Shown piece by piece: positions 5,114 to 54,845 of a stretch of DNA of 64,000 bases (the first letter of the stretch is position 1; the number at the start of each line of letters is the position of its first letter). A model generated the notes under the pieces. The model did no database searches. It saw only the letters and a list, made by a program, of their open reading frames with translations, and was not told where the DNA came from. A program made the position numbers and the translations under genes. Source of the DNA: a virus (Duplodnaviria > Caudoviricetes); the IMG/VR virus record IMGVR_UViG_2872922060_000001, positions 22,371-86,370 of that record; one strand, given 5' to 3'.

Positions 5114-5206
5114 CCGAGTCGAGCGAAGTGCTTCTTCCACCGAAGCGAACCACCCACCGAAGCGGGGGCCCTTTTGTGCCTCCGCGTTACCGGAAGCAGG
5201 TTCATA

Positions 5207-10388: not shown

Positions 10389-11054
10389 ATGCCCTCCTCA
10401 GTTCTGGTCATCTCCATCGACCCACAGGGATCCACCCTCTGGTGGGCCGACCGCATCGGTGACGACCTCCCCTTCGACTTCGCCACCGCCCACGACGACC
10501 CCGACAGCCTCAGCAACCTGATCTCCCTCAAGGAATCGGGCGCGAAGGTCCACGTCGTCGCCAACCAGAAGGGCGGGGTCGGCAAGACGACGATAGTGAT
10601 GAACCTCGCCGCTACCGCCCAGGACGTCCTCAAGGCAGGCAACCAGGTACGGCACGTGTTCATCGACACCCCCGGCTCCATCGAGGACGAACGCCTCCTG
10701 ACCGCAGCCCTCGAAGTCGCCGACGACGTGATCGTGCCCCTCCCCCCGGACCCGCTCGCGTTCGACCCGACCACCCGCACCATCGAGAAGGTCATCAAGC
10801 CCCGCGGCCTCCCCTTCAAGGTCATCATCAACAACTGGGACGCCCGCGACGGCAAGACCGACATGCTCGACACCCGAGCATTCGTCACAGCGCAGGGCTG
10901 GTCCCTCGCAGAGACCGGGATCCGCCGGTACCGCATCCACACCCGCGCCCCCGCCGAAGGGAAGCTCGTCACCCACTACCCCGACAGCGGTACCACCCTC
11001 AGAGCCCGCCAGGACTTCCTCAAGCTCGCCCTCGAGCTGGGCTACGGGGGCTGA
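10389..11054 (+). CDS. parA: ParA partition ATPase with permuted motif order
   Basis: NQKGGVGKTT (deviant Walker A), IDPQGS (A'), FIDTPG (Walker B); adjacent to parB. Confidence 0.9.
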   Translation: MPSSVLVISIDPQGSTLWWADRIGDDLPFDFATAHDDPDSLSNLISLKESGAKVHVVANQKGGVGKTTIVMNLAATAQDVLKAGNQVRHVFIDTPGSIEDERLLTAALEVADDVIVPLPPDPLAFDPTTRTIEKVIKPRGLPFKVIINNWDARDGKTDMLDTRAFVTAQGWSLAETGIRRYRIHTRAPAEGKLVTHYPDSGTTLRARQDFLKLALELGYGG

Positions 11055-11056
11055 CC

Positions 11057-12082
11057 GTGGCAGGAAAGCGCGTATCCCTGGCCTCCCTCGCCGGGGCCCC
11101 TGTCGAGACCGTGCCCGGCGCCTCACGCCCCGACCTGATCCACGTCCCCCCGAGCACCGTCGCCCCTACCCCCCTCAACCCGCGGCGCGCCTTCGACGAG
11201 ACCGAGCTGGCCGAACTCGGCGAAGACATGCGAGGAGGACAGCTCCAGCCGTGCGTGGCCGTGAACAAGGCCGCCTACCTGAAGCTGTACCCCGAGCACG
11301 CCGACCAGCTGCCCGCTGGTTGCCGGTACGTCATGGCCGCCGGCGAACGCCGCTGGCGCGCCGCCGTCAAGGTCGGCCTCGAGCACCTCGACCTGCTGCT
11401 GCGGCACGACCTCACCGAATCCCGCGTCCGGTTCCTCGCCGCGGTGTTGTCGGAGAACGTGCAGCGCGCCAACTTCAATCCCATCGAGGAAGCCGACGGC
11501 CTGCGTGCCATGCTCGACCTCCACGACGGCAACCAAGCCGCGGCAGCGCGAGCCATGGGCAAGTCGAAGCAGTGGTTCAACCAGCGCATCGGCCTGCTGC
11601 GGCTGACGGATCAGATGGTGCAGCTGGTCCTCGAAGGGAAACTGACTGCGTTCCGCGAGATGCGCCGGTACGCGGCTATGCCGCCGGAGGAGCAGTATGC
11701 AGCGTGGCAGGCGGACCAAGAGCAGCCGCGTCCGCCCAAGCAGCCATCCGTCGAGTTGAACCCGGGGAAGATTGCTGGCACCGTTCAGCAGCAGCAGGCG
11801 TATACCGCGGTATACCCGCCCGCCGACACAGCCGCCGCAGCCTCACCGGCACCGGTCCCAAGCCAGCCAGAGGCCACAGCAGCAGCGGAACGCATCCCCG
11901 AATCACGGACCGCCATTCAGGCGGACACGCCAGCGGCCCAGCCATCAGCGAGACGATTCCCCTACGACGATGGCCTGTCCGCGGGACAACTCCTGATCCA
12001 TAAGATGCCGCCGGCGGAGCTGGAGAAGGTGACCGACATGCTCATTGCTCACCGGGAGAAGCAGACCGCTGGCGTCAGCTGA
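11057..12082 (+). CDS. parB: ParB CTPase-type partition protein
   Basis: NPRR.F, AGERRWRA, ENVQR..NPIEEA, HTH. Confidence 0.92.
   Translation: MAGKRVSLASLAGAPVETVPGASRPDLIHVPPSTVAPTPLNPRRAFDETELAELGEDMRGGQLQPCVAVNKAAYLKLYPEHADQLPAGCRYVMAAGERRWRAAVKVGLEHLDLLLRHDLTESRVRFLAAVLSENVQRANFNPIEEADGLRAMLDLHDGNQAAAARAMGKSKQWFNQRIGLLRLTDQMVQLVLEGKLTAFREMRRYAAMPPEEQYAAWQADQEQPRPPKQPSVELNPGKIAGTVQQQQAYTAVYPPADTAAAASPAPVPSQPEATAAAERIPESRTAIQADTPAAQPSARRFPYDDGLSAGQLLIHKMPPAELEKVTDMLIAHREKQTAGVS
11800..11815. repeat. parS candidate 4, inside parB
   Basis: GTATACCGCGGTATAC. Confidence 0.8.
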
Positions 12083-14273: not shown

Positions 14274-14315
14274 ACCGCGCTACGCATTGCGATGCAATGC
14301 ATAGCGCGGTACGGT
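14274..14315 (+). promoter_or_regulatory. Operator/promoter copy 1
   Basis: Inverted repeat ACCGCGCTACGCATTGC-GAT-GCAATGCATAGCGCGGT; TTGCGA-N17-TACGGT. Confidence 0.75.
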
Positions 14316-19254: not shown

Positions 19255-19295
19255 CCGCCCTATGCATTGCATTGCCATGCATAGGGCGGTACGGT
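19255..19295 (+). promoter_or_regulatory. Operator/promoter copy 2
   Basis: CCGCCCTATGCAT-N9-ATGCATAGGGCGG; TTGCAT-N17-TACGGT. Confidence 0.75.
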
Positions 19296-23984: not shown

Positions 23985-24293
23985 GTGCATCTCAACCCGG
24001 ACAGCGACGACTACCCCACCCCGTTCCGTGAGTGGATCACTGAGCAGGCGCACAAGGCCGGCATGGACGACCCCGCCGGCTTCGCCAGCCACTGGGCGCC
24101 CCACAACCGGTTCGACGGTCTCTCCGACGGTGATGCGGACTCGCTGGCGTGCTTGCTGGGGGTGGGCTTCGAGGAGGTGCGTGCCGCGCACAAGGCGGAC
24201 ATTACTGTGTGGATCCGTGACCGGGAGGTGGCGGAGCATCCTGACCTGGTGGTTTTGGACGCGGTGCTGGACGGGATCGCTCGGGGCGCCTGA
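23985..24293 (+). CDS. Hypothetical protein
   Basis: GGAGG RBS. Confidence 0.6.
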   Translation: MHLNPDSDDYPTPFREWITEQAHKAGMDDPAGFASHWAPHNRFDGLSDGDADSLACLLGVGFEEVRAAHKADITVWIRDREVAEHPDLVVLDAVLDGIARGA

Positions 24294-24313
24294 TCCCGGG
24301 GTGGGTGTGGTGG

Positions 24314-24356
24314 CAGCCCGTCGTCTGGCTGGAGGGCCAGGTGGCGGGCTGTTTTT
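24314..24356 (+). terminator. Intrinsic terminator
   Basis: CAGCCCG...CGGGCTG hairpin followed by TTTTT. Confidence 0.65.
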
Positions 24357-24378
24357 CTGTGCCCGTAATATCGAACGT

Positions 24379-24717
24379 ATGTCCGGTCTGCCGCTTGATG
24401 CACGTCTCGCTAAGCTCCGCGCCTTGGAGGAATGGCTGGACTGGCAGCTGAACAACACGCGGCAGAAGATCCGCACCCTTGAAGCGCAGAGGGACCGGGA
24501 ACAGCAGCAGGCGCAGCGGGCGTGGGCGGAGTCCCGGTGGAAGCTGGAGCCGGCCCGGGACCGGCGGACTGTCCTGCACCGGGGCGGGTGCGGGATCTGG
24601 AAGGGCGGGCACGGCTACCTGGATCGGCAGGAAGTCCTGCTCGCGCTGGAGGACGAGACGCTGGCCGTGGAGATGTGCGGGGTGTGCAACCCGGAGCCGG
24701 GGCTGCGGCAGGCCTAG
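24379..24717 (+). CDS. DUF6233-like zinc-binding protein, probably leaderless, with an SOS-like box at the start
   Basis: Coiled coil, LH.GGC, C.VC.PE; TAATAT then TCGAAC-N4-GTCCGG. Confidence 0.7.
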   Translation: MSGLPLDARLAKLRALEEWLDWQLNNTRQKIRTLEAQRDREQQQAQRAWAESRWKLEPARDRRTVLHRGGCGIWKGGHGYLDRQEVLLALEDETLAVEMCGVCNPEPGLRQA

Positions 24718-25610
24718 GCGCTGCGCCGCGGTTTCCGGGCCGTATTCTTCGCCGCGGCCTTACGCGCGGGTGCCTTCTTCGCGGTCCGCTTCGGCATCTC
24801 GTGGACCTCGGCCCGCCCGTCGTCACCGCGGGCCTCCCGGGCCTTGGCGACGGACGCGTTAAGTGCGGCCATCAGGTCGACGAGCTGGCCGGTCTCCGCG
24901 GCGGGCTCCGGTACGGCCGGCGGTTCGCGGTTCTCACGCTTCGCTTTGATCATCTCGGCTACGGCTTCCGTGTACGTGTCGCGGAAGTCCGGGCCCGTGA
25001 GCTCCTCCACGGTCATGGTGTCCATGAGGGCCAGGGCGCCTTCGATCTCCTCTTCGGACACGTCGACCGGGGGCGGGGTGAGGGACGCCGGGTCGCGGAT
25101 CTCGTCCGGCCAGCGCATGGCGTGGAGGACGATCGCGTCGTCCCGGACGCGCAGCAGGCCGAGCCGTTCGCGGCCGGACCAGGCGTAGCGGGCGACAGCG
25201 ACACGCTCCGACCGGGCGAGGGCCTGCCGGAGCAGCTTGTACGGCTTGGCGGCGACCTGCCCGTCCGGCTGGAGGTAGTAGCCCTCGGCGATGCGGATGG
25301 GGTCGACGGACTCGAGCGGGATGAACGCGACGATCTCGATGGCTTTCGCGGTCGGCAGCGGCAGGTCGCGGAGTTCCTGGTCGGTGACCGGGACGACGAC
25401 ATCGCGGGCGATCTCGTAGCCCTTGCCGATCTCCGATGGGGAGACTTCGCGGTCTTCGAGCTCGCAGATTTTGCGGGTGCGGACGCGGCCCATGTCGGGC
25501 AGGTGGACGCGGTGGAAGTGGATCGAGTGGTCCTCGGTCGCTGAGACGACGTGAATCGGCACGGTGACCAGGCCGAATGAGATGGCGCCGGACCAGATGG
25601 ATCGGGGCAT
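24714..25610 (-). CDS. ku: Ku DNA end-binding protein (NHEJ)
   Basis: RSIWSGAISFGLV.VPI, I.KGYE, YYLQP, F.D.Y, VDLMAAL..S, basic tail. Confidence 0.95.
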   Translation of the reverse strand: MPRSIWSGAISFGLVTVPIHVVSATEDHSIHFHRVHLPDMGRVRTRKICELEDREVSPSEIGKGYEIARDVVVPVTDQELRDLPLPTAKAIEIVAFIPLESVDPIRIAEGYYLQPDGQVAAKPYKLLRQALARSERVAVARYAWSGRERLGLLRVRDDAIVLHAMRWPDEIRDPASLTPPPVDVSEEEIEGALALMDTMTVEELTGPDFRDTYTEAVAEMIKAKRENREPPAVPEPAAETGQLVDLMAALNASVAKAREARGDDGRAEVHEMPKRTAKKAPARKAAAKNTARKPRRSA

Positions 25611-25675
25611 GGCGAACCTCCGCGTGCGGCCCCGAGCACGTCCAGCCTACGAGCGGGCCGGGTAGTGTGCACGTG

Positions 25676-25712
25676 ACGGTGCCCCGCCTGCTTACCTCAG
25701 GCGGGGCACCGT
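25676..25712. terminator. Perfect inverted repeat (terminator-like)
   Basis: ACGGTGCCCCGCCTG-N7-CAGGCGGGGCACCGT. Confidence 0.6.
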
Positions 25713-25859
25713 TCTGTGTCTGATGGCCTCATTTCTCGTCGGCGGCGAAGTGGTCTTCGGGGACGCAGCCACCGCCGGGGTGGAAGGGGCAGTAGTCGTC
25801 GGGGACGTCTACGTGCTCGAAGTCCTCGTACTCGTCGTCGTCGCTCATGGTCGGTGTCC

Positions 25860-26114
25860 TCACTTCTCGGTGGCGTGGTCGGTGGCTTGTGCGGCTCGGA
25901 TCTCGTCGGCGGTGACCGTCTCGAAGTGCCACCACCGTCCGCCCTCCCACTGCTCAACCTTGGCGGACTCGGCGGGGCTGTCGGCGCCCAGGCTGGCGCG
26001 GATGAAGGCGTAGGTCTTCGCCTCGCTGGTGAACGAGGACGTTGTCTCCACCTCAGGACCCGTGACGGTCACGCGCCACGGCTTCGACGGCTTCTTCACG
26101 GACATGGTCGGCAT
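25860..26114 (-). CDS. Small hypothetical protein
   Basis: AAGGAG RBS. Confidence 0.6.
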   Translation of the reverse strand: MPTMSVKKPSKPWRVTVTGPEVETTSSFTSEAKTYAFIRASLGADSPAESAKVEQWEGGRWWHFETVTADEIRAAQATDHATEK

Positions 26115-26165
26115 CCTTTCTCCTTGGGACCCCGTCCGGGTGGTCCGGGCGGGGTGTGGAACGGG

Positions 26166-26999
26166 TCAGGCGTTGCCTTGTGCTGTGAACTTCCCGCTCT
26201 CGCTGCGCGGGGCACCATGGCGTCCCTTTCCCGGACGAGCCGAGTGCGCCGCCTGCACCTGGTCGGCCGCGTACAGGCTCTCGCCGCCGCGCCCCGGCGC
26301 CCGGCCCACCGCGTGCAGTCCCCAGCGGGACAGCTGCTTGCGGGCGCTGCCGGTCGCGGACTCTCCCTCGTAGCCGAGGTGTTCGGCGACCCGGCTGATC
26401 GGCCAACGCTCGTAGTCCCGGGTGGCGTAAGCGTCGAGGTCATCGACGTGCCACAGCGGCATCCGGCCGTTGAGGGCATAGTGGCGCGGCTGCGGTGCGT
26501 TGCCGGCTTTCTGGAGGAGGATCCACGCGTCGTTACTGACGACGATGCCGTGCTCTCCCAGGTAGCGCAGGGACTGGTCCCGGGTCAGGCACCGGTCCTC
26601 GCGCGCCGCGTCTGCTGACGGCACCCGCTCGTCGAGGGGTTCCATGCGGCTGCGCGCGCCGGCGATCGGCCAGGCGTCGTGGGGCATCTGGCGGGCGTTG
26701 TACTCCAGCCACTCCTCCGGCGTCGTCTCGGCGTCTCGCGGGAGTGGCTCCAGGTTGGTCATGAAGCGCAGGTCGGGCTCGGCGCCGATCCGGTCGGCTT
26801 CGGGGCCGGTGCCGTACATGTACTGGTGGTTCGGGCGGTCGCCTTTGGTCCGTCCGGTGTCGCACAGTACGCCGAGCGGCTGCTGCCCGAAGGACATGTG
26901 GATGGCCTCTGCCAGTGCGCGGGCCTTCGGAGTGAGAGTGTCGAGATCGACCTCAGCGGGCGCGGACGCCCTGCGGATCTTGAGCTTGACGGTGGTCAT
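26166..26999 (-). CDS. Protein with two C-terminal AlpA/MerR-like HTH domains
   Basis: AP.P....GR.PLW...D.D; W....VAEHLG......ARKQLSRWG. Confidence 0.65.
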   Translation of the reverse strand: MTTVKLKIRRASAPAEVDLDTLTPKARALAEAIHMSFGQQPLGVLCDTGRTKGDRPNHQYMYGTGPEADRIGAEPDLRFMTNLEPLPRDAETTPEEWLEYNARQMPHDAWPIAGARSRMEPLDERVPSADAAREDRCLTRDQSLRYLGEHGIVVSNDAWILLQKAGNAPQPRHYALNGRMPLWHVDDLDAYATRDYERWPISRVAEHLGYEGESATGSARKQLSRWGLHAVGRAPGRGGESLYAADQVQAAHSARPGKGRHGAPRSESGKFTAQGNA

Positions 27000-27028
27000 C
27001 GGCGCGTCCTTGGGTGAGGGCGGGAGGG

Positions 27029-27562
27029 TCACATGTAGCGGGGGTTGAAGTACTCGTTGTCGCGGGCGTCGGCGGCGGCGTCCAGGGCGTCCTCGCGCTC
27101 CCACATCTCTTCGAGAGCCGCGTAGAAGGCGGGGGCCTCGTCGGCGAGGCGCTGGGTGTTGATGTGGTAGACGGCCTGGTCACCGTCGGTGTAGGCGAGT
27201 CCGAGGGTTTCCAGGGTGCGTCCGTAGTCGCCCCAGGTCTCCTGGGTCAGGCCGAGGTAGATCTTGTCTTGGCGGTAGGGGTCGTTGGTGGGGGTGACGG
27301 GGGTGCCGTTCTTGAAGGCGGCTTCGAGGGCGGTTGCCTCTCCGCGGATTCCGAAGGAGCCGTCCTTCATCTGGACGATGGTGCCGGTGGTGGTCATGGC
27401 CTTGGCCTTCCTGGCGCCGATGGCGATGCGGGCGGCGAGGGAGACGCTGTCGATGACCCACCGGCCGGCCTGCTTGGCGGCGGTGATGACTCCGCGGCGG
27501 CACCAGGTGCGGATGGTGGCGACGGTGACGTTGGCCTGGATGGCGGCTGCGGTGGTGTTCAT
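27029..27562 (-). CDS. N-terminal MerR/excisionase-like HTH protein
   Basis: MNTT.AA.QA.VTV.TIRTWCRRG.I.A.K.AGRW.ID. Confidence 0.75.
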   Translation of the reverse strand: MNTTAAAIQANVTVATIRTWCRRGVITAAKQAGRWVIDSVSLAARIAIGARKAKAMTTTGTIVQMKDGSFGIRGEATALEAAFKNGTPVTPTNDPYRQDKIYLGLTQETWGDYGRTLETLGLAYTDGDQAVYHINTQRLADEAPAFYAALEEMWEREDALDAAADARDNEYFNPRYM

Positions 27563-27588
27563 CGTGGGTTCCCTCCCTGGCGATGACT

Positions 27589-27620
27589 CCATAATGCCTC
27601 ACGATGAGGCGTTATGGCAA
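27589..27620 (-). promoter_or_regulatory. Promoter with palindromic operator
   Basis: CCATAATGCCTCA-CGA-TGAGGCGTTATGG; minus-strand TTGCCA -35. Confidence 0.55.
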
Positions 27621-27682
27621 GGGGGTTTACCCGTCTCTATCCAGAAGATCCGTTTGTCAGTGCCACCAGCGAAGATGCCCCC

Positions 27683-27868
27683 ATGACGATCACCATGCAG
27701 AGCTACGCCTTCACCTGGACCGACCCGGAGGGCACACCCCGCGCGTCGGCTGTCGCCTACGACAAGGCCAGCGCGGACCGGCGGGAAAGGGAACTCGAGG
27801 CCACGGGCGCCACCAGCATCAGACGGGTGCCTGTGGCGCCCGGGGAACTGCCGGAAGTGGAGGGCTGA
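27683..27868 (+). CDS. Small hypothetical protein
   Basis: Codon bias; divergent from 27562. Confidence 0.5.
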   Translation: MTITMQSYAFTWTDPEGTPRASAVAYDKASADRRERELEATGATSIRRVPVAPGELPEVEG

Positions 27869-28058
27869 CGCGCGTCCGCCCCGCCACGACGGGGGATGCG
27901 CGGACGGGGCGGACGGCTGGACGCTCGCCCGGCTATCAGCCGGCGACCTCCCGGGTGCCACGGTTTCCCGATGGCAGACGAGCGAGCACTACGCCCAGCA
28001 TGGCACGTTGCACTGACAACGGTCCCCAGGGAGTGCGAGAAGCGGTGGCCGGGGCAGG

Positions 28059-28322
28059 TTACGGGCCTTCCTCACGCCGCCGGGCAAGGGCCCACACGGC
28101 CAGCGGCCACGGCACCAGCCCGATCAGGTACACGAGTACGTGGCAGGCCGCGCACCGCAGCGGATACTCCCGCATGAGGGTTGCCATCTCGGGGTCGGTG
28201 CGCGCCACGTTCTGATAGTGCTGGCGGACGCTGCCGAGGGTGATGTCCAGTTCGGCAAGGACGACGATCCCGGTGATGAGGTACAGGCTGGTGAGGACGA
28301 AGACGGTGTCTTGCACGGTCAC
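28059..28322 (-). CDS. Small membrane protein
   Basis: Two hydrophobic segments; overlap with upstream gene. Confidence 0.55.
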   Translation of the reverse strand: MTVQDTVFVLTSLYLITGIVVLAELDITLGSVRQHYQNVARTDPEMATLMREYPLRCAACHVLVYLIGLVPWPLAVWALARRREEGP

Positions 28323-28537
28323 GGCCTCTCCCAGTCCCCGGTGTCGTTCGCCCCCTCCGCAACGTCGGCCTTGTGCTCGTCGATGGTGCGTTGCGTGTCC
28401 TGGTCGGCCACGATCCGCTGGAAACCGCAGGAGCAGAACACGGCCGTGGCGCCGGTTTGCTCACTGATCACCCAGTTGTTGTCGTCCACGTACTCGGTCG
28501 TGTCGCGCTCCCACGACATCTCATGCTGCACGGTCAC
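28319..28537 (-). CDS. Small zinc-binding protein
   Basis: CSCG...H; GTGA overlaps. Confidence 0.55.
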   Translation of the reverse strand: MTVQHEMSWERDTTEYVDDNNWVISEQTGATAVFCSCGFQRIVADQDTQRTIDEHKADVAEGANDTGDWERP

Positions 28538-28992
28538 GGGTTCACCTCGTTTTCGATGATGCGGATGGTAGGGCATGGCCAGGGGACGAGGTACTGGTAG
28601 CCGTCGCCGCCGTCCTGGCTGCACGTGCCGCAATGGTTGGAGTCAGGGAAGCCGGAGCCGTCCGGTTGGGGTTTATGCAGGGCCCGGATCTTGCCGATGA
28701 CGTCCAGGAGCTGCTGGCGGGTGGGCTTGCGGTACGGCTCCCACCAGTCCGGCGGGTCGACGAGGAGCGGCGTGGAGCGGCGTTCGATGGCAGCCTTCTC
28801 GCCACGTTCGTCGAGGTGCCGATGCCCGTCCGCGGTGAGGTGGAATGCCTCGTAGTGGATGTGAACGGTTCCGTCAGGGTGCGGGGCGAGGTACAGGTCG
28901 GCGTCGAGGGGGACGTCTTTGGGGCGGATGTTGTTGGCGGTGAGCCACGCGCAGAGTTCCTCGCGGCGGGCCTCGGCCGGGGCGCCGGCCAT
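28534..28992 (-). CDS. Hypothetical protein
   Basis: C-terminal LH.P..C..C..WPC.T module. Confidence 0.6.
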   Translation of the reverse strand: MAGAPAEARREELCAWLTANNIRPKDVPLDADLYLAPHPDGTVHIHYEAFHLTADGHRHLDERGEKAAIERRSTPLLVDPPDWWEPYRKPTRQQLLDVIGKIRALHKPQPDGSGFPDSNHCGTCSQDGGDGYQYLVPWPCPTIRIIENEVNP

Positions 28993-29300
28993 CAGGCACC
29001 GTCCTCTGTGGGCTGGAGGGCGACGTGCGGGTAGGCGCGTACGTGGGCCACGTCCTCGTTGGGGACGCTCTTGCCTCCGAGGGGCCTGGCCGGTGTTTCG
29101 GCCCAGCCAGCGTGGACGCTGGGGAAGACGACGAGCTGGGCGCCTGATTCGATGCACAGGTCGTTGGCGCCGATGATGCGAATTCGGCCTTGGCGGAGGC
29201 AGATGGGATCGTGGCTGATGAAGGCTACGGTGTCGCCTTCGGTGAGGGGGCGGCCGCTGTAGTCGACGGCCTGGGGCTGGGGCGTGTCGCTGGTGGGCAT
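28992..29300 (-). CDS. Hypothetical protein (SH3/KOW-like)
   Basis: D..GR.L..GDTVA. Confidence 0.55.
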   Translation of the reverse strand: MPTSDTPQPQAVDYSGRPLTEGDTVAFISHDPICLRQGRIRIIGANDLCIESGAQLVVFPSVHAGWAETPARPLGGKSVPNEDVAHVRAYPHVALQPTEDGA

Positions 29301-29390
29301 GACTCTACGGTCCCGCGAATTCACGGGCGTCGTTCCCCTGGTTCTGTGCGCGGCCCGGCAGCGTGGGGGGGGAGGGCTGCCGGGTCCGGG

Positions 29391-30440
29391 TCAGCTGGCC
29401 CAGGTGCCGTGCAGCGCCGACGTGGTGAAGCCGGGCCCGTACGCCACCATCAGCACACCGGCGCCATCAGCCGGGGCCTGGTCGTGAGTGCGCTCCAGTA
29501 CCCGCAGCACAGCGGGCCCGCCAAGATTGCCTTCCTCCGCGAGCGTGTCCAGGGAGTGCCGGGCGTCGTCCTCGGTCAGGCCGAGAGCGGTCGCGGTGTC
29601 GAGGATGATCGGGCGGGACCCGGGGTGGATGACGGGGACGGTGACGGGCCGGCCGCCGAGCCAGTCGACGACGGCGGGCATCGCAGCACGGGCGCCGCCC
29701 GAGGATTTCTTCGTGGAGTCGAAGTGGAGGCCGTCGGGGTCGATGCGGCCCCAGTAGTAGTCGAGGGAGTCGGGGAGGACGTACTCGTAGAGGTCGCCGG
29801 GGCCGTGGATGGTGAGGCCGGGTCCGGTGGGGTGGGTGGACACGATGGTGGCGGCCGCGGAGTCCCCGAAGAGGGCTTTGTAGATCATGTGCTCGATGCC
29901 TGTATCGCCGTGCTGGTAGCTGGTGGAGAGGACTTCGGCGGCGACGACGAGGATGCGGCCTCCGGGGCGGAGGAGGGCTTGTTCGGTGGCGCGGATGAGG
30001 GCGTGGGCGCCGCCTGCGCAGGCTGCGGAGGTGAGGGCGGTGCGGTGGACGGCGGGGTTGAGGCCGAGCCGGCCCACGAGGTGCACGTCCAAGTTGGGAA
30101 CGGACCAGCCGGTGGCGTGGGTGGTGACGATGCCGGTGATGTCCGCGGGTGTCAGGCCGTGCTGGGTGAGGGCGGTGCGTGCGGCTTCCTCGGCCAGGTT
30201 CAGGGCGTCGTTGAACGCTTGTTGGGTGCGGGCGTGGACGTCGGCGGTGCCGGTGATGGTGTCCGCGGTGAGGGGCTGCGTGAAGTACCGGGACTGGACG
30301 CCGCAGTTGTTGATGACGCGGAGGATCGCGCCGAGCCGCGGGTGGTCGGGGTGGTGGGCGGCGATGTCGTCGGCTATCTCGCTGGTTGTGATCTTGTGCG
30401 GGGCGAGGACGGTGACGGGGCGGGCGACATGGACGGGCAC
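29391..30440 (-). CDS. Type III polyketide synthase (RppA/Gcs/VioA-like)
   Basis: Catalytic Cys (AACAGG), His (IHPG), Asn (GNLGG); LFGD and GPGFT motifs; GTG start after a GGGGAA RBS. Confidence 0.93.
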   Translation of the reverse strand: MPVHVARPVTVLAPHKITTSEIADDIAAHHPDHPRLGAILRVINNCGVQSRYFTQPLTADTITGTADVHARTQQAFNDALNLAEEAARTALTQHGLTPADITGIVTTHATGWSVPNLDVHLVGRLGLNPAVHRTALTSAACAGGAHALIRATEQALLRPGGRILVVAAEVLSTSYQHGDTGIEHMIYKALFGDSAAATIVSTHPTGPGLTIHGPGDLYEYVLPDSLDYYWGRIDPDGLHFDSTKKSSGGARAAMPAVVDWLGGRPVTVPVIHPGSRPIILDTATALGLTEDDARHSLDTLAEEGNLGGPAVLRVLERTHDQAPADGAGVLMVAYGPGFTTSALHGTWAS

Positions 30441-30574
30441 GGGCTTCCCCCTGGGGTGTGCTGACCTGGTAGGGGCCAAGGTACGGCGCAGTTGGCGTGA
30501 TTGTTTCCCCTGCCGTTCGGTTTCTGCTCGCGCAGCGACCGAAATGCCGGGACAAACCCAGACCCAAGGGGTGT

Positions 30575-31399
30575 CTACTGGGCTTGGAGCATGGTTCGGC
30601 GTGTGGTGGTGCGGCGGGGGCCCGGCCGAAAAATGAGGATCATGAATCGTGATCCGGGGGCGGCCATGGGCTGCGCCACGCACATCGTGACCCAGCCGTC
30701 CCCTTCGGTGGCGTGCCGGATGGGCCGCTCGTCGCCGTCGGGGTGAATGCTCGCGCCGCCGGCTTCGTACAGGGGCCGGGATATGGGGTCGGCGAGGACG
30801 TCGTGCTCGATGTCGCGGAGGACGGTGTCGTCGGGGCGCTGTGCGAGGGCGGCGCGGAGCTGGGGCATGACGAACGGTGCCCAGGCGGTCGCCCAGTCGG
30901 TGAGCTGGTTCCGTCCGTCGAGGAGCATCCACCGCATGGTGTTGGCGGGTGCGCGGCCGCCGTGGAACAGGGTGTGGAACTGCGGGTTGCAGGCGAGGAC
31001 GTTCCAGGAGGCGTCGGTGACGTACGCCATGTGGGTCATGCCGTTGACGGCGTCCTGCCAGGCGCCGGGTACCTGGTCGCCGGAGGTGTCGTACAGGGGG
31101 CCGGGCGGGTCTTCGCCGCGGGCGTACCGGCACAGGGCCATCCATTCCTGTTCGTTGAACTGGAGCAGGGTCGCGATGTCGCGGAGGAGGTCGGCCGGCG
31201 GGTTGGGGTAGGTGCCTGATTCGAGGCGGTGGCAGGTGCCGCGGGCCCGGTTGATGAGCTCGTCGACCTGGTGCTGGGACAGGCCGGGGGCGCGGCGTCC
31301 TTGCCGGTTGGGCCGGGTGAGGCCGTGTGCTTCGGGGGCTATGCGGGCGCGGGCGTCTTTGAGGAGCTTTTTCAGTGCGGGCTTGTCTGGTTTGTTCAC
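30575..31399 (-). CDS. XRE/MmyB-family regulator (HTH plus PAS-like ligand-binding domain)
   Basis: L...RARI.P..HG....GRRAPGLSQ, RLESG, AYVTD..WNVLACN, N.MRW. Confidence 0.9.
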   Translation of the reverse strand: MNKPDKPALKKLLKDARARIAPEAHGLTRPNRQGRRAPGLSQHQVDELINRARGTCHRLESGTYPNPPADLLRDIATLLQFNEQEWMALCRYARGEDPPGPLYDTSGDQVPGAWQDAVNGMTHMAYVTDASWNVLACNPQFHTLFHGGRAPANTMRWMLLDGRNQLTDWATAWAPFVMPQLRAALAQRPDDTVLRDIEHDVLADPISRPLYEAGGASIHPDGDERPIRHATEGDGWVTMCVAQPMAAPGSRFMILIFRPGPRRTTTRRTMLQAQ

Positions 31400-31815
31400 T
31401 GGTGTGTTCGTCCCCCGGGGTTGCTGACTGCTCGGCAAGTGTAATTAGTGGGATGGTTTTTAATCCAAAAAATCTTCCGTAGAAAAGAGGTGGGTGTGTG
31501 ATGCATGCTCAGTTCTGCGTGGCGCTGGCCTGCCAGGTTGTTGCTGGTGACCGCGTGGATACACTCGCCGGTAACCTTTGGCCAAAGATTGTTGGGCCGG
31601 TTTGTGAAGGGTTGCAGGCGGGTCCCGGGAACTCCCGGTGGCTTTAGGCTGGTTCGGGCGCCGTTTCCCTTCGGGGAATCGCAGCGCGGCACCCGATCCC
31701 GACCACGAAGTCTTCACGGGGTGTTTCCGGACGGTGCCCGGTCACGGCCGGTGCCCTACCGCCCCACTCCAGGGGCCTCGGCACCGGCCGCCGGCACGCC
31801 CAGGGCCTGTCACGA

Positions 31816-32304
31816 CTAGGACTGCCTAGTTGCGTTGGACGGCTGCACGCCCTTGAGCACAGCCAGCTCCCGCTGCGCCTCGACCAGCCGAGCCAGGTAC
31901 TCCGCGGCCTGCGTCTTCCAGTCCGGTGCCGCGCCAGCCCGAATCCTGCCGGTCATGAACCGGTCCCAGCCCTCCAGCGCGTACTCCAGATCCCGGATAC
32001 GGGCACGGAGCCCGTCGGGATCGCGGCCCTGCCGGAGTTCGGCGACCTCGGCCTCAAGGCGCCGTACGTCGGCGGCTGTGCGGGCCTTCTGCCGTTCCCG
32101 GCCCTTCTCGTAGCCCCGCATGAACGCGGCCTTGCGTTCCTCGCGGGGGCACTCCTCGATCCAGGGCAGGAGAGCAGCGGCCGCGTCCCGGTGTTCCTGG
32201 GCGCGTTCGGGGTTTTCCTGCTCGAGCTCGGCGATGCCCCGGTAGTCATACTCGCGGGATAGCTGGTCGGCGAGGCGCTGCTCGCGGGTGAGGTCTTCAG
32301 GCAC
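31816..32304 (-). CDS. Coiled-coil hypothetical protein
   Basis: Heptad-rich; start inferred. Confidence 0.55.
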   Translation of the reverse strand: MPEDLTREQRLADQLSREYDYRGIAELEQENPERAQEHRDAAAALLPWIEECPREERKAAFMRGYEKGRERQKARTAADVRRLEAEVAELRQGRDPDGLRARIRDLEYALEGWDRFMTGRIRAGAAPDWKTQAAEYLARLVEAQRELAVLKGVQPSNATRQS

Positions 32305-32518
32305 GACGGTCCTCAAGGTGTTGGTGGGCGTCGCGGTGCTCGCCGCAGGTCTGCCCGAACAGGTCGGCCCGGCAGTGCAGGCCGGGCCCTTCGAACGTGT
32401 GGTGGCCGATCGTGGCCACGCTGAACGCCGCCTGCTGGCCGGCGAGCGGCGCCGGCGTCGGCTGAGCGAGGAGAGCTTCCACGCGCTCAAGACGGCGAAT
32501 GATCTCCCGTTTCGACAC
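32297..32518 (-). CDS. Small hypothetical protein
   Basis: H.F..C..CG..R..H motif. Confidence 0.5.
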   Translation of the reverse strand: MSKREIIRRLERVEALLAQPTPAPLAGQQAAFSVATIGHHTFEGPGLHCRADLFGQTCGEHRDAHQHLEDRRA

Positions 32519-32526
32519 GAACCGCC

Positions 32527-33345
32527 TCACGCGTCCTCCAGGTCTACGCCACCGACGAGTACGCGAAGCCGAGAGTGCCGGGACGGGCGGGCCGCCATCT
32601 CGTCCACCGAGGGCCAGTCGTCCGCGCAGATCCCGTACTTCGGCGGCTGCCATCGGGGCCGGTAGTGCCGGTAGACCTTCTCCCAATCCGCCTTGAAGTA
32701 GCAGGGCAGCAGACCACCCGTGTTCGGGATGGGCTCCGGAGCCTGCTCGTTCTGTGCGCGGACCTGCTCGGCGACGCGGTCGGCGTGATCCTTGTGCCGC
32801 TTGCAGAACCAGCGCGCGGTGATCCACCCGGTCCGGGGGTCCTTCTCGAGGACACGGTGGTGGGATTGGGCACCGCACACGCCGTCTTCGGTGCGCCAGT
32901 CACGGGGCGGGGTATAACCGGGCGTGACGTGCACGAATGTGGGCGGCAGCTTGTGCAGGCGGGTCGGCTCGGGCAGCCCGGCCTGGGCGCGGGGCTTGTA
33001 GGCCCTGGGGCGGTACGGGCGAAGGCGAGGGCCTTCGCAGGAGGGCGCTCCGGACGGGTACCAGTCGCCGGCTTCCCGGGGCGGCTTGTAGCGGGGCGCG
33101 TCGTCGGCGATGAGCCGGTCGTAGCGGGCCTTGCCGTGATCGACACCCAGCTTCCGGCGGGCGACCTTCAACGGGCTGACGCCGTCCTCACGCTTGGCGA
33201 GGTCGACGGCGTAGCCGATGGCGAGGAGGAGTTCCCGGGTCTCGTGGCCGACGCGGGGGTCTTCGTAGACGGCAGCGACGAACTCGGGGAACGTCCGCTT
33301 GGGGCGCTGTTCCTGTGCGGGGGCCGGTACGGAGCGGAGCATCAT
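32527..33345 (-). CDS. Hypothetical protein
   Basis: GGAGG RBS, ATGA overlap. Confidence 0.65.
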   Translation of the reverse strand: MMLRSVPAPAQEQRPKRTFPEFVAAVYEDPRVGHETRELLLAIGYAVDLAKREDGVSPLKVARRKLGVDHGKARYDRLIADDAPRYKPPREAGDWYPSGAPSCEGPRLRPYRPRAYKPRAQAGLPEPTRLHKLPPTFVHVTPGYTPPRDWRTEDGVCGAQSHHRVLEKDPRTGWITARWFCKRHKDHADRVAEQVRAQNEQAPEPIPNTGGLLPCYFKADWEKVYRHYRPRWQPPKYGICADDWPSVDEMAARPSRHSRLRVLVGGVDLEDA

Positions 33346-33668
33346 GCCTCCTCGTCGACTCGGTGGTCTGGGACCCGGGGCTCGTTGATGCGGCGGACTG
33401 TGACGGCGGGGCTGCGGGGCGGGGGCGGGTCGTTGCGGTGCTTCCACGCGTCCCAGTCCTGCCGCGGGTGGGCGAGGCACCAGGCCAGGTTCTCGGCGGC
33501 CAGCACGGCCCAGATCGCCCACCAGCGGGCACGGTGGCGGCGGATGGACTGGTCGTACTTCGCCCAGTTCGCCCAGTCGGAGACGCGCCGTGCGGGCCTG
33601 TAACGGCCGAGGGCGTAGCCGGCGGTGACCAGGCCCAGGGCCGCGGCCGCGGCGGCCAGAGGGGTCAC
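33342..33668 (-). CDS. Membrane-anchored hypothetical protein
   Basis: N-terminal hydrophobic helix; overlaps. Confidence 0.6.
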   Translation of the reverse strand: MTPLAAAAAALGLVTAGYALGRYRPARRVSDWANWAKYDQSIRRHRARWWAIWAVLAAENLAWCLAHPRQDWDAWKHRNDPPPPRSPAVTVRRINEPRVPDHRVDEEA

Positions 33669-34093
33669 GACACCGTCTCCAAGCTGATCTGCCGCTGGAC
33701 GGCGGCGAGGACGCTTTCGGGGACGGTCCACAGGCCGAGCTGCCCGCGGACTCCGAGAACGGGTTCTGGCAGCAGACGGACGCTTCCGATCTCCCAATGC
33801 CACGAGTCAGGGAATCCCCATGGGCGGCAGCAGCCGGTGTCCTCGTGGCAGCCGACCACGTCGAAGACGGCGATGATCGCCTTGCGGTAGAGGGGCCAGT
33901 CGGTCATGCCGTCGGTCAGTGCGCGCGGTACTTGGCTGCTGGGGCGCGGGGTGCGGTCGTCGGCGGCGCCGGCGTGGAGGCAGAGGGTGGTTCCGAGCTG
34001 GTTGGCGGGGATGCGGCGGGGACGGTTCTCGATGCGCTTCGGGCCGTGGGCGATGGCGGCGGCCCACGGCTGTCGGACGGTCAGGGCTCTCAC
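33665..34093 (-). CDS. ASCH-domain protein
   Basis: ALTVRQPWA.AI..G.K.IENR, HAG, RGQLGLW. Confidence 0.88.
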   Translation of the reverse strand: MRALTVRQPWAAAIAHGPKRIENRPRRIPANQLGTTLCLHAGAADDRTPRPSSQVPRALTDGMTDWPLYRKAIIAVFDVVGCHEDTGCCRPWGFPDSWHWEIGSVRLLPEPVLGVRGQLGLWTVPESVLAAVQRQISLETVS

Positions 34094-34662
34094 GGGCTGG
34101 TCCTCTCGCAGGTGGGATGTTGGTGGGCAGCCGTACCCATGGCGTGCGGGTAGTCGTAGGCGCCGGGGATCGGCTGCCACGTCTCCCCATGGGCCCCGCA
34201 GGTCTTGCACCGCCATCGTTCACCGCCGTCGACCTGCTCCAGGCCGAACCGGGCATAGAAGGCGTCCAGCTCCGTCTTGCGTTCCTGGTAGATGGTGGTG
34301 CGCCGCTTGTAGTCCCTGTAGACGTTGCCCCGGTAGCGGGGGTCGTCGATCGTCTCGTTCCAGCCCGGCTGGTAGTCGGGGTGGTCGCGGAAGAGGCGGG
34401 CGAGGCCGCACATGGTGGTGCAGGGGACGCCGGCGGTGGCGGTGCAGGTGACGCAGGCTGCGGCGGAGCGGCCGCGGGCGTCGATCCAGATGTTGTGCTG
34501 GTTGGCGATGAGGTAGAGGGAGTCGATGCGGTTCAGTTCGGTGTCGCGGGTCTCGCCTGGCGGGAGCTGTTCGGCAGTCTGCTGGGCTTCGGCGAGGCGG
34601 GCGTACACGAAGTCCTCGCAGCGGAACTCCCACCGCCACGCCGGATCGTCTGGGCCGGTCAC
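34090..34662 (-). CDS. DUF6221-like protein
   Basis: F..ARL.E, PC.T...LA..F.DHPDY..W. Confidence 0.55.
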   Translation of the reverse strand: MTGPDDPAWRWEFRCEDFVYARLAEAQQTAEQLPPGETRDTELNRIDSLYLIANQHNIWIDARGRSAAACVTCTATAGVPCTTMCGLARLFRDHPDYQPGWNETIDDPRYRGNVYRDYKRRTTIYQERKTELDAFYARFGLEQVDGGERWRCKTCGAHGETWQPIPGAYDYPHAMGTAAHQHPTCERTSP

Positions 34663-35051
34663 TGAGTGTCCCCTTCGGGGTCGTCTGCGCAGCCACAGCG
34701 GACTCCGCCGCTATGCCGGGGCGGGTCCGCAGGGACAGCGCGAAGGTTCGGGCAGCCGTCCGGGAAGGTGGGGCAGCGCTCGATGGTGGCGACGGCCGGG
34801 TATAGGTCGGGGAAGGCGAAGCAGGCGTTGACGATGTCGGCGAGGATGGCGGCGTTCAGCGGGATCTGTTCGCCTTGCGGGTGCATGCTGCCGCGGACGT
34901 AGCCCATAACGGCGGCGTCCTGGAAGAGTGCGCGTTCGCGGTCAGTGAGGCTGTTGAGGAAGGCGTGGACTCTGTCGGCTCGGGCTGCCTGCCGCTTGGC
35001 GAAGTACTCGTTCAAGGCGGCGTCTACCTGGCTCTCGCGGTAGTCGGTCAC
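34659..35051 (-). CDS. Hypothetical protein
   Basis: GTGA overlaps; codon bias. Confidence 0.6.
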   Translation of the reverse strand: MTDYRESQVDAALNEYFAKRQAARADRVHAFLNSLTDRERALFQDAAVMGYVRGSMHPQGEQIPLNAAILADIVNACFAFPDLYPAVATIERCPTFPDGCPNLRAVPADPPRHSGGVRCGCADDPEGDTQ

Positions 35052-35401
35052 AGGCGGGTCCTCTCGGAGGTGTCGGTGGCGGCGAGGATGGCCTTGCAGG
35101 TGTTCAGGTCTTCGTCGGCTTGGGTGAGCAGCTCTCCGCCACCGGCCCAGATCCGGGTGCGCGGCTCGTTTTCCGCGAAGACGACGAGGCCGTGTTCGAC
35201 GTGGAAGGTGCGGCCGTTGACGCGGCAGGTCTCGGCTTCGCTCCAGTCGCGGGTGCACAGCCATACGCCGTGGGCGGTCCAGTACTCGGGGCAGGGCGTT
35301 GTCCAGATGGGTTCGCCGTTGTCGAAGGTGGCGGTGTAGAGGAAGACGGGGCGGATCTGTTGGCAATGCTGGCAGCGACCGACCCTGGGAAGCGGGTCCA
35401 T
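35048..35401 (-). CDS. Hypothetical zinc-ribbon protein
   Basis: CQHC; TGATG overlap. Confidence 0.55.
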   Translation of the reverse strand: MDPLPRVGRCQHCQQIRPVFLYTATFDNGEPIWTTPCPEYWTAHGVWLCTRDWSEAETCRVNGRTFHVEHGLVVFAENEPRTRIWAGGGELLTQADEDLNTCKAILAATDTSERTRL

Positions 35402-35820
35402 CACGCCTCCAGGGCAGCCGGGTCGCCGTCGGGCTCGCCGGGGTCGACTTCGGGGTGGGTAAAGCGGACCGGCTTGCCCAGGGAGCGGGCGTAGGCGATC
35501 TCCGCGCGGGTGGAGTCGCCGATGTAATCGCCGACGACCAGGACTTCGTCCGCGAGGCGGATCTTCGCGCGGTGCAGGTCGTCCAGGCGGGCCTTGAGAA
35601 CTTCGGCGTCGGCGGGGTCGGCCCACAGGGGGTGGGGCTCCTTCATGTTGCAGCCGGGCTTTACGACGATGTGGCCGTTGGCGGTCTCGATGCGGTCGAT
35701 TTCGGCCATGAGGTTCATGAAGCGGGTGGAGCCGCAGATGGCGACGATGCGGGGGATGCCGAGGCGGTTCTTGGCGTCGGCGAGTTGCTCTTCGGGGGTG
35801 AGGAGCTGGGGGTAGGTCAC
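35401..35820 (-). CDS. Nucleoside 2-deoxyribosyltransferase-like Rossmann-fold protein
   Basis: ICGSTRF, LH..KI.LADEV.V..YIG.ST..EI.YA...GKPV. Confidence 0.7.
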   Translation of the reverse strand: MTYPQLLTPEEQLADAKNRLGIPRIVAICGSTRFMNLMAEIDRIETANGHIVVKPGCNMKEPHPLWADPADAEVLKARLDDLHRAKIRLADEVLVVGDYIGDSTRAEIAYARSLGKPVRFTHPEVDPGEPDGDPAALEA

Positions 35821-35950: not shown

Positions 35951-35986
35951 ACTGTACCGCGCTATGCATGGCACAGCAATGCGTAG
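35951..35986 (-). promoter_or_regulatory. Operator/promoter copy 3
   Basis: Minus strand CTACGCATTGCTGTGCCATGCATAGCGCGGTACAGT; TTGCTG-N17-TACAGT. Confidence 0.75.
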
Positions 35987-37780: not shown

Positions 37781-37816
37781 AACGTACCCCATTAGACATG
37801 GCACTGCAATGCATAG
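37781..37816 (-). promoter_or_regulatory. Operator/promoter copy 4
   Basis: Minus strand CTATGCATTGCAGTGCCATGTCTAATGGGGTACGTT; TTGCAG-N17-TACGTT. Confidence 0.7.
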
Positions 37817-54823: not shown

Positions 54824-54845
54824 GAGCGGAGTGGAGAGGGATGCC

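Follow-up and report, generated by a model that had tools for sequence, protein, structure and literature searches.

A 2.4-kb stretch of the (-) strand, at about 29354-31791 of the window (the whole 64,000-nucleotide stretch of DNA that was analysed), is very probably a self-contained violapyrone-type cassette, carried as host-level cargo by a pZL12-like phage-plasmid. It holds a vioB-type regulator gene followed by the gene of a vioA-type type III polyketide synthase (PKS), both genes on the (-) strand and 134 nt apart. Judged by sequence, the pair is a diverged, full-length orthologue of vioA/vioB, neither a new system nor a mere analogue. Gene identity, orthology, limits and distribution come from the present analysis, and product class and repression from published work; ligand, operators and benefit are inferred. 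In the order of transcription the features are:

31744-31791 (-), strong hairpin at the 5' edge, 12-bp outer and 5-bp inner stem (fold, conservation, limit of homology)
31400-31743 (-), non-coding leader with the regulator's promoter region (conserved blocks in 16/16 cassettes)
30575-31399 (-), vioB-type regulator, XRE helix-turn-helix and PAS-like MmyB-type ligand domain, 274 aa from GTG at 31399 (Pfam, orthology, fold)
30441-30574 (-), intergenic region with promoter-like elements for the PKS (conservation in the closest cassettes)
29391-30440 (-), vioA-type type III PKS, 349 aa from GTG at 30440 (Pfam, triad, orthology)
29354-29384 (-), terminator-like hairpin at the 3' cassette edge, 9-bp G+C stem (fold, just past the PKS stop)

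The carrier element

The window lies on an 86,370-bp contig of 69.2% GC, in a genome that also includes a 7.9-Mb contig of 72.8% GC. Phage genes in the window encode a terminase (52554-54116), a portal, a scaffold and a major head protein, and plasmid genes encode ParA, ParB and a Rep-like protein, which bears out the phage-plasmid setting proposed in the first-pass annotation. Thirty-three plasmids of 85-152 kb encode major head proteins that share 47-79% identity with the one found here. By its gene content, the carrier is a pZL12-like Streptomyces phage-plasmid on a separate contig. Its background GC within the window is 64-73% in 1-kb windows, and no Rfam family reached its gathering threshold anywhere in the window.

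pZL12 (GQ919031) carries the pair as pZL12.99 and pZL12.100, in the same place on the same family of elements, with 59% identity for the PKS and 59-60% for the regulator. A type III PKS on an 86.4-kb pZL12-like plasmid, whose neighbours give no sign of a gene cluster, was described in PMC4487206. In the parts available, both this paper and the pZL12 record stop at gene annotation: they assign no function, do not connect the genes with vioAB and do not name the regulator as a partner.

The polyketide synthase and its regulator

An intact type III PKS had been proposed from the letters of the sequence, and both profile and structure comparisons agree with this. Chal_sti_synt_N scored 83.1 bits (cut-off 27) and ACP_syn_III_C 27.4 bits (cut-off 26.6), with Chal_sti_synt_C at 21.8 bits, under its cut-off of 27. 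The nearest solved relative is 1U0M (E 7.9e-36, PKS residues 6-348 aligned); 3V7I, which we take to be the germicidin synthase Gcs, gave a weaker match (E 7e-32). Cys141 (SAACAGG), His272 (IHPGS) and Asn305 (EGNLGG) each fall under a column where the same residue is conserved in 1U0M, 3V7I and 4JAO, presumably the catalytic residues in 1U0M. Its sequence thus presents the enzyme as intact, with a Cys-His-Asn triad and chalcone-synthase-like domains. A listed open reading frame of 584 aa extends the PKS upstream in the same frame, across the intergenic DNA and into the regulator gene, which is read in another frame. No NCBIfam equivalog was found for the PKS; since the top match, DpgA, scored 85.7 bits, far under its cut-off of 425, the enzyme is not DpgA. 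Many of its relatives bear the RefSeq name PhlD, for which no model was matched in the NCBIfam scan.

The regulator may also start at a TTG at 31438, which would give a 287-aa protein, and the residue numbers below refer to that form. Two Pfam domains stand above their cut-offs: HTH_31 at residues 45-99 (30.9 bits, cut-off 27) and MLTR_LBD at residues 127-278 (48.8 bits, cut-off 26.3, E 1.1e-12), the latter covering profile positions 5-162 of 168. The co-oriented XRE regulator with a PAS-like MmyB domain that had been recognised upstream of the PKS is therefore retained. A phmmer search of the regulator against the PDB returned no match at E<=0.01, so that a fold search was necessary to find a solved relative. 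With the AlphaFold model (pLDDT 87.4) as query, the first two Foldseek matches were chains B and A of 3PXP (E 5.7e-10 and 9e-10), aligned over 279 and 277 columns respectively at TM 0.43-0.46; the matches after these were single PAS domains at E>=1.7e-3. 3PXP, the MltR structure (Pfam PF17765), shares with the regulator the XRE helix-turn-helix and the PAS-like ligand domain, at 18% identity. Going by the model, the regulator is of the MmyB-like (MLTR) type with a fold like that of 3PXP. Many aromatic residues of the ligand domain are invariant in an alignment of 15 homologues, which fits a predicted ligand pocket. 3PXP was solved holding myristic acid, a fatty acid (PMC3406030).

Limits and non-coding parts of the cassette

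Conservation ends on both sides of the pair. Nucleotide homology with a non-phage contig of 395 kb (G187) and with plasmid L001 begins at 31795-31801, and homology to other cassettes stops at 29391-29400; with non-phage loci it spans 31795 to 29400 only. The hairpin at the 5' edge (-46.7 kcal/mol, z -2.2) folds in 16/16 aligned cassettes, at -15 to -48 kcal/mol, and one compensatory change, C:G to U:A, was observed in cassette L013. It is probably a terminator or an insulator against read-through from upstream phage-plasmid genes. At the 3' edge, the 101-nt stretch around the terminator-like hairpin does not differ significantly from shuffled sequences (z -0.77).

Between the 5' hairpin and the regulator lies a leader of about 350-400 nt that is common to plasmid and chromosomal cassettes, conserved in blocks in 16/16 of them and, by nhmmer, present as a single copy in the genome. 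It includes the AT-rich region that had been reported ahead of the pair, which we place at 31400-31549 with a GC content of 48-51% in 100-nt windows. Immediately ahead of the regulator ribosome binding site, an imperfect dyad, CTTGCC-N6-GTCAGC, is found at 31425-31439. Because RNAalifold gave almost no consensus structure for 16 leaders (-6.5 kcal/mol, 8 pairs), the idea of a riboswitch-like leader was abandoned, and the boundary hairpin is the sole structured piece. A small open reading frame in the leader was likewise rejected, as tblastx finds matches in every one of the six frames, stops included.

Two elements in the intergenic region are candidate operators, to judge from their symmetry and conservation. 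The first is an imperfect inverted repeat, ACGGCAG-N20-GCGCCGTAC, at 30481-30516, the right arm of which enters a -10-like TACCTT; the second is a dyad, CTTGGC-N9-GGTCAGC, at 30460-30480, which overlaps the PKS leader. These elements are kept in the closest cassettes (WIN, L001, L002, L005 and L006) and partly in L003 and L007. A scan of 29000-32400 for sigma-70 consensus promoters, which is blind to the diversity of Streptomyces promoters, gave no match.

Kinship with vioA/vioB

The first-pass annotation had likened the pair to the plasmid-borne vioA/vioB, and the relation proved closer than likeness. VioA and VioB were compared through proxies from pCQ3 and pCQ4, which are 95% identical to them (PMC4924298). 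The PKS is 63% identical to WP_012840496 of pCQ3 over 350 aa with one gap, and the regulator 66% identical to WP_015060958 of pCQ4 over 270 aa. In the tree, the PKS falls within a starred clade of 12 rows (99/97) that also holds the pCQ3, pCQ4 and pZL12 copies.

In Streptomyces somaliensis SCSIO ZH66, the violapyrone cluster consists of two genes on a circular plasmid of about 85 kb; deletion of vioB raised violapyrone B about eightfold, identifying VioB as a negative regulator, and deletion of flanking open reading frames had no effect (PMC4924298). The present locus resembles it in its two co-oriented genes with the regulator first, in a plasmid of about 85 kb and in having no tailoring genes. 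It differs in that its copy is diverged, and product and repression are established solely for the S. somaliensis copy; an identity of 63-66% leaves room for another chain length, another extender unit or even another product. VioA has been grouped with Cpz6, DpyA and Gcs, with Cpz6 as its closest relative, and further vioAB loci were reported in 21 more genomes, most of them on plasmids (PMC5898002). The present plasmid may already figure among those 21 loci or in the antiSMASH table of PMC10023795. Gcs and Cpz6 share enzyme family and product class with the present PKS (PMC5898002); in contrast to it, neither is reported, in the text available, to stand beside an MmyB-type regulator, Cpz6 lying in a large cluster and Gcs on the chromosome.

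Since the words phage, pZL12 and MmyB do not occur in the searched text of PMC4924298 or PMC5898002, the vioAB papers are, within that text, silent on the carrier being a phage-plasmid and on the MmyB-type domain of VioB. Our literature search found no paper joining MmyB-like regulators to a type III polyketide, and no link between violapyrones and phage in titles or the beginnings of abstracts; in the portion of PMC13730376 that was seen, "phage" stands in the reference list only. Papers on vioAB and papers on pZL12-type phage-plasmids treat the same genes without citing each other.

Distribution and mobility

A survey of phage-plasmids for the conserved pair had been suggested with the first description of the locus. 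In PLSDB, the PKS (E<=1e-45) is present on 25/33 Streptomyces and Kitasatospora plasmids with this capsid type, and in 25/25 of these the regulator lies upstream of it on the same strand within 1 kb; the pair is absent from the other 8/33. This cross-tabulation covers all 57 PKS matches at E<=1e-45; the regulator matches are the best 60 of 63, and those of a wider PKS search the best 40 of 139. Of the genes at 24714-35404, four related plasmids keep the pair alone in their matching 25-30-kb regions, and in pSAM1, a relative without the pair, backbone order is kept and a different gene occupies the spot. Retention on 25/33 plasmids within so mosaic a region exceeds what would be expected of casual cargo, a hint that the element itself may profit.

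The pair is also found free of such elements. It is adjacent in 28 of 400 sampled species genomes, just 4/28 of which also have the capsid type. (The 47/400 tally for this sample includes G130, which is flagged as unpublished; our other claims are independent of that tally.) At 10/10 chromosomal or large-contig loci, only the pair, of 112 predicted plasmid proteins, matches within 20 kb on each side. The tree of the PKS requires at least three to four switches between plasmid and chromosomal contexts. Sporadic cargo found mainly on chromosomes had been named as an outcome that would count against a role for the pair in the phage; in species-representative genomes most copies do lie outside phage-plasmids, but on the phage-plasmids themselves the pair is not sporadic, being kept at one spot by most members of the family. 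As part of the same overall account, the cassette is probably accessory cargo with a fixed spot on phage-plasmids, which has moved several times to or from chromosomes.

In every context examined, the cassette consists of two genes only. This agrees with the earlier remark that tailoring and export genes are lacking nearby: the open reading frames flanking the pair (26166-27032, 31816-32301 and 32527-33345) have no Pfam match, and the gene at 24714-25610 encodes a Ku homologue. VioB-type regulators without a PKS were found at 11 loci, nested inside the vioB clade. Because such copies persist, a VioB-type regulator appears able to function apart from the synthase.

Proposed function and alternatives

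The cassette would read, in order, as a boundary hairpin, a conserved regulatory leader, a vioB-type repressor, an intergenic promoter, a vioA-type PKS and a terminator, inserted at the convergence point past the DUF6233 gene. Beta-keto acids as starters and methyl- or ethyl-malonyl-CoA as extenders have been described (PMC5898002); by homology to VioA, the present synthase is expected to join beta-ketoacyl starters from fatty-acid metabolism to the same extenders, and its predicted products are 4-hydroxy-6-alkyl-alpha-pyrones, that is, violapyrones (presulficidins). The regulator, if it acts as its orthologue does, would hold down the synthase promoter, and its PAS-like MmyB-type pocket probably takes a lipid-like ligand that lifts repression. 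MmyB itself is an activator. VioB differs from it in being a repressor (PMC4924298). The payoff would most likely fall to the host cell, as an antibacterial or otherwise bioactive pyrone, and not to control of the phage life cycle.

Germicidin acts on spore germination. It is conceivable, if unlikely, that the cassette makes a germicidin-like pyrone that inhibits the producer's own spore germination or hyphal growth and with which the carrier manipulates the development of its host or of neighbours, the alternative offered in the first-pass annotation. VioA groups with Gcs, its products are structurally close to germicidins (PMC5898002), and the S. somaliensis cluster is indirectly under the developmental regulator WblA (PMC4924298). 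Nevertheless, the PKS is closer to 1U0M (E 7.9e-36) than to 3V7I (7e-32), the sequence is silent on the point, and the passages of PMC4924298 and PMC5898002 at hand contain no germination assay of violapyrones.

Quite unlikely is the circuit favoured in the first-pass annotation, in which the pyrone is a diffusible signal and the MmyB-type regulator its receptor, together steering lysis, plasmid state or transfer in the manner of arbitrium. With AimP/AimR the pair shares only its general layout, in which a temperate element places a signal-making gene next to a ligand-binding regulator; it differs in being non-peptide, in having no link to lysis or lysogeny that we could find and in not being restricted to phages. 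In Photorhabdus, alpha-pyrones signal through a PAS-type LuxR solo. Synthase and ligand-domain regulator do occur together on a phage-plasmid, at one spot in mosaic surroundings on 25/33 relatives; the 11 solo VioB-type loci are reminiscent of LuxR solos, and the solved MmyB-like protein 3PXP binds a fatty acid (PMC3406030). Against this, 8/33 related plasmids do without the pair, the capsid type accompanies it in so few species genomes (4/28 of those with the pair, 400 sampled), and it behaves as a free-standing host module, not as a phage component: it stands free of other plasmid genes at 10/10 chromosomal or large-contig loci and changed context at least three to four times. The boundary hairpins suggest insulation from phage transcription, and the one experimental result published is repression of violapyrone output by VioB: the vioB deletion altered pyrone yield, with no phage phenotype reported in the passages available (PMC4924298).

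Nor are the dyads of the cassette promoters commoner than chance on the 86-kb contig, for operator patterns that were guessed from these dyads and their conservation only. TTGAC-N5-8-GTCAA and ACGGCA-N18-26-TGCCGT each had no match on the contig, TGAC-N6-10-GTCA had 7 against 6.5 expected, and the loosest cassette-specific patterns found the two cassette sites and 2 others against about 2 expected from base frequencies. As the extra matches are near chance expectation, these guessed patterns give no sign of additional regulator sites on the plasmid.

A role of the pyrone (presulficidin) in carrying sulfate for a pathway with a sulfotransferase, as with Cpz6 in caprazamycin biosynthesis, is hardly credible: violapyrones and presulficidins are identical compounds (PMC4924298) and VioA is closest to Cpz6 (PMC5898002), but the cassette has two genes in all contexts examined, and no sulfotransferase-like gene lies beside it in the window or is conserved there at the 10 chromosomal loci.

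A broader and doubtful conjecture makes violapyrone-type pyrones signals of Streptomyces at large, with VioB-type receptors. pZL12-like phage-plasmids, 25/33 of which keep the cassette, might then sense the density of carriers or condition their neighbours, the solos at 11 loci might eavesdrop as LuxR solos do, and the leader might be a control hub that brings this input together with host developmental regulators. If the MmyB-type domain did read the pyrone as a signal, this would be a non-peptide communication system on a temperate element of antibiotic producers.

As a self-contained violapyrone-type cassette of probable host-level benefit, the locus repeats a two-gene pyrone cassette already in print and by itself changes little. 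What it adds is a cassette with defined limits and a conserved leader, which most members of one phage-plasmid family retain and which also stands free in chromosomes.

A palindromic motif elsewhere in the window, TATGCATTGC, had been put forward as a set of operators. The motif is real and enriched, with 7 matches at <=1 mismatch against 0.72 expected. Operators of the vioB-type regulator are ruled out, with zero copies in the cassette; all copies lie at:

14281-14303, TATGCATTGC site
19261-19283, TATGCATTGC site
35963-35985, TATGCATTGC site
37806-37815, TATGCATTGC site

None is inside or adjoining the pair, and the palindromes look like operators of some other regulator on the element.

Regulator and type III PKS of the cassette

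The two genes under study are encoded on the same strand, with a spacer of 134 nt between regulator and PKS:

30575-31399 (-): regulator, 274 aa, with an XRE helix-turn-helix (HTH_31, 30.9 bits) and an MLTR_LBD domain (48.8 bits, E 1.1e-12)
29391-30440 (-): type III PKS, 349 aa (Chal_sti_synt_N, 83 bits)

The 584-aa ORF in the mechanical ORF list is the PKS frame extended upstream, overlapping the regulator gene. PKS residues 6-348 align with 1U0M (E 7.9e-36), and Cys141, His272 and Asn305 occupy the conserved Cys/His/Asn columns of that alignment. G+C falls to 48-51% at 31400-31549, compared with 64-73% across the window at the 1-kb scale. Profiles, alignment and G+C content confirm the features that the first-pass annotation had observed, i.e. 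a type III PKS, an XRE/MmyB regulator and an AT-rich upstream stretch. A fold search with an AlphaFold model of the regulator, built from 15 homologues (pLDDT 87.4), placed the solved MmyB-like regulator 3PXP at ranks 1 and 2 over its full length (E 5.7e-10 and 9e-10); single PAS domains came next, with E values of at least 1.7e-3. Since 3PXP, the best fold match, was solved with bound myristic acid (PMC3406030, in the part consulted), the model makes a lipid-like ligand plausible.

The locus as a diverged vioB/vioA cassette

According to the consulted part of PMC4924298, the S. somaliensis vio cluster comprises vioA (type III PKS, 350 aa) and vioB (XRE regulator, 272 aa), is carried by a circular plasmid of ~85 kb and produces violapyrones, which are alkyl-alpha-pyrones. 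There, deletion of vioB raised violapyrone B about eightfold, deletion of the flanking ORFs had no effect, and, per Table 1, VioA matches pCQ3 WP_012840496 and VioB matches pCQ4 WP_015060958, each at 95% identity. Our locus shares the regulator and type III PKS, on a contig of similar size (86,370 bp). The window PKS is 63% identical to WP_012840496, with one gap in 350 residues, and the regulator is 66% identical to WP_015060958 across 270 residues. In an IQ-TREE phylogeny of 32 copies, the PKS falls in a starred 12-row clade (99/97) with those of pCQ3, pCQ4 and pZL12. Contiguity of the pair is not universal: in pCQ4 (NC_019307), two small hypothetical ORFs (3234-3889) separate the vioB homologue from the vioA homologue. 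Taken together, the locus is a diverged violapyrone cassette of the vioB/vioA type that a pZL12-like phage-plasmid carries as cargo.

The genes, their pairing, the product class and the plasmid association are already in print, as PMC4924298 and excerpts of three further papers cover them. VioA was grouped next to Cpz6, DpyA and Gcs, with beta-keto acid starters and methyl- or ethyl-malonyl-CoA, and vioAB loci were known from 21 further genomes, 'most' on plasmids (PMC5898002); a type III PKS was present on an 86.4-kb pZL12-like plasmid (PMC4487206); and, in actinobacterial prophages, type III PKS clusters were seen on plasmids only (PMC10023795). A connection between vioAB and phage-plasmids was absent from the literature text searched. 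The present analysis may extend this by defining the cassette limits and the hairpin-bearing conserved leader, counting the pair on plasmids (25 of 33), describing the solo regulators and showing, by a tree, repeated moves between contexts.

The carrier replicon

The window (G000:C2:22371-86370) belongs to an 86,370-bp contig of 69.2% G+C, accompanied by a 7.9-Mb contig of 72.8% G+C. Besides an FtsK/SpoIIIE-like protein and a GntR regulator, it encodes:

5174-6688: Rep-like protein
10389-11054: ParA
11057-12082: ParB
24714-25610 (-): Ku homologue (Pfam Ku, E 1.3e-41), ~4 kb from the cassette
52554-54116: large terminase
54831-56738: portal
56801-57574: scaffold
58120-59172: major head protein

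The major head protein is 47-79% identical to those of 33 Streptomyces/Kitasatospora plasmids of 85-152 kb, and the sole phage record with the PKS in the phage collection is the plasmid-phage pZL12. Because head genes share the window with partition and Rep genes, the head protein matches these 33 plasmids and pZL12 is the only phage record with the PKS, 'phage-plasmid' is a fair label for this replicon.

Distribution on plasmids

At E<=1e-45 the PKS matched 57 PLSDB records, all listed, and at E<=1e-20 the regulator matched 63 (60 among the matches listed). The first-pass annotation had suggested surveying phage-plasmids for a conserved pair. The PKS was present in 25 of the 33 plasmids of this capsid type (PLSDB, E<=1e-45), and in each of these the co-oriented regulator lies upstream, the aligned parts being 96 to 961 nt apart; conservation did not extend to the other eight, CP054917, CP012383, CP108822, CP108843, CP134214, CP075614, CP107756 and CP109172. 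The pair-less plasmid pSAM1 (NZ_CP012383) retains the backbone order of methylase, HTH protein, DUF721, ParAB, SSB, LuxR, nuclease-related and DUF6233, and has a 255-aa hypothetical gene in place of the pair at the convergence point after DUF6233 (region 24154-25690). As another gene sits there on the same backbone, this point looks like a cargo site. Of the window genes at 24714-35404, four relatives share only the pair in their corresponding regions. Given this, the replacement gene in pSAM1 and the retention in 25/33 plasmids, the pair is an often-retained resident of a cargo site within a mosaic region.

Two other Streptomyces plasmids, NZ_CP109342 and NZ_CP108641, have a different synthase-receptor pairing: more distantly related type III PKSs, 43% identical, that overlap an ScbR-family autoregulator receptor annotation.

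Distribution in genomes and movement between contexts

A search of 400 further species-representative genomes from the genus gave a PKS match (E<=1e-40) in 50 and a regulator match in 47 (a tally that includes the unpublished G130); coordinate comparison showed an adjacent co-oriented pair in 28. This capsid type occurs in only four of the 28 (G026, G139, G203, G369), two of which have capsid gene and pair on one 90-100-kb contig. Complete chromosomes carry the pair as follows:

G315: at 248 kb of 7.39 Mb
G165: at 247 kb of 7.88 Mb
G174: at 421 kb of 7.87 Mb
G080: at 5.20 Mb of 7.57 Mb

When 112 predicted C2 proteins were compared by tblastn with ten such large-contig loci, only regulator and PKS matched within 20 kb on either side, in all ten; these neighbourhoods are mutually different, except for four that are syntenic. 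On the PKS tree the phage-plasmid label changes four times, at least three of these forced by starred branches, and copies from G315 (chromosome) and G187 (395-kb contig) nest among those of phage-plasmids. Judged from the tree, the cassette has moved repeatedly between contexts.

Cassette limits and non-coding elements

Nucleotide homology to G187 and to a plasmid (L001) spans 31795-31801 to 29391-29400. Because it stops at both edges, the unit is about 2.4 kb long, with some 400 nt ahead of the regulator gene included. This leader (31400-31791) is single-copy within the genome and kept in blocks in 16/16 aligned cassettes, from plasmids and chromosomes alike; it showed no protein-coding signal and no consensus RNA fold other than the hairpin at its 5' edge, which folds in 16/16 loci with one compensatory change. 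The elements are:

31744-31791: strong hairpin at the leader 5' edge, -46.7 kcal/mol
directly before the regulator RBS: dyad, TTGAC-N6-GTCAA in the best copies, CTTGCC-N6-GTCAGC in the window
regulator-PKS spacer: inverted repeat ACGGCAG...CTGCCGTAC, its right arm running into a -10-like TACCTT
spacer, after these: second dyad, TTGACC...GGTCA
directly 3' of the PKS stop codon: G+C hairpin

From their conservation, we infer that the dyads and repeat are candidate regulator operators at both promoters and the edge hairpins putative insulating terminators.

Solo regulators and the signalling question

VioB-type regulators without a PKS occur at 11 loci (L050-L059 and L049, e.g. G342:C1:6927232-6928050 and G391:C1:6835524-6836336), with 56-62% identity to the window's regulator; eight of these genomes had no PKS match genome-wide at E<=1e-40. 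The genes next to them encode GNAT acetyltransferases, MFS transporters, a helicase or an unknown protein. By FastTree, six of these 11 regulators fall within the vioB clade. Two loci retain the conserved leader and have a GNAT gene in the PKS position. They may be decay products, or regulators responding to something not made next door.

Pyrones serve as signals in Photorhabdus. By analogy, pyrone and MmyB-type regulator might form a signalling circuit of the phage-plasmid, the arbitrium-like proposal of the first-pass annotation, and the layout of synthase plus ligand-binding-domain regulator, the high retention on phage-plasmids and the solo regulators would all suit it. We nevertheless consider such a circuit improbable: most sampled pair-bearing genomes have the cassette without phage genes, 8/33 related plasmids manage without it, its promoter dyads do not recur above chance on the 86-kb contig, and the boundary hairpins suggest transcriptional autonomy. 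The TATGCATTGC palindromes, earlier tied to the pair, also argue against it, as none lies within the vio cassette and all are elsewhere. They follow TAyGCATkGC-N3-GCmATGCrTA, with seven half-site matches against 0.72 expected, and form three full sites (14281-14303, 19261-19283, 35963-35985) and one half-site (37806-37815). Most are intergenic by the ORF table, and they are likely operators of some phage-plasmid regulator.
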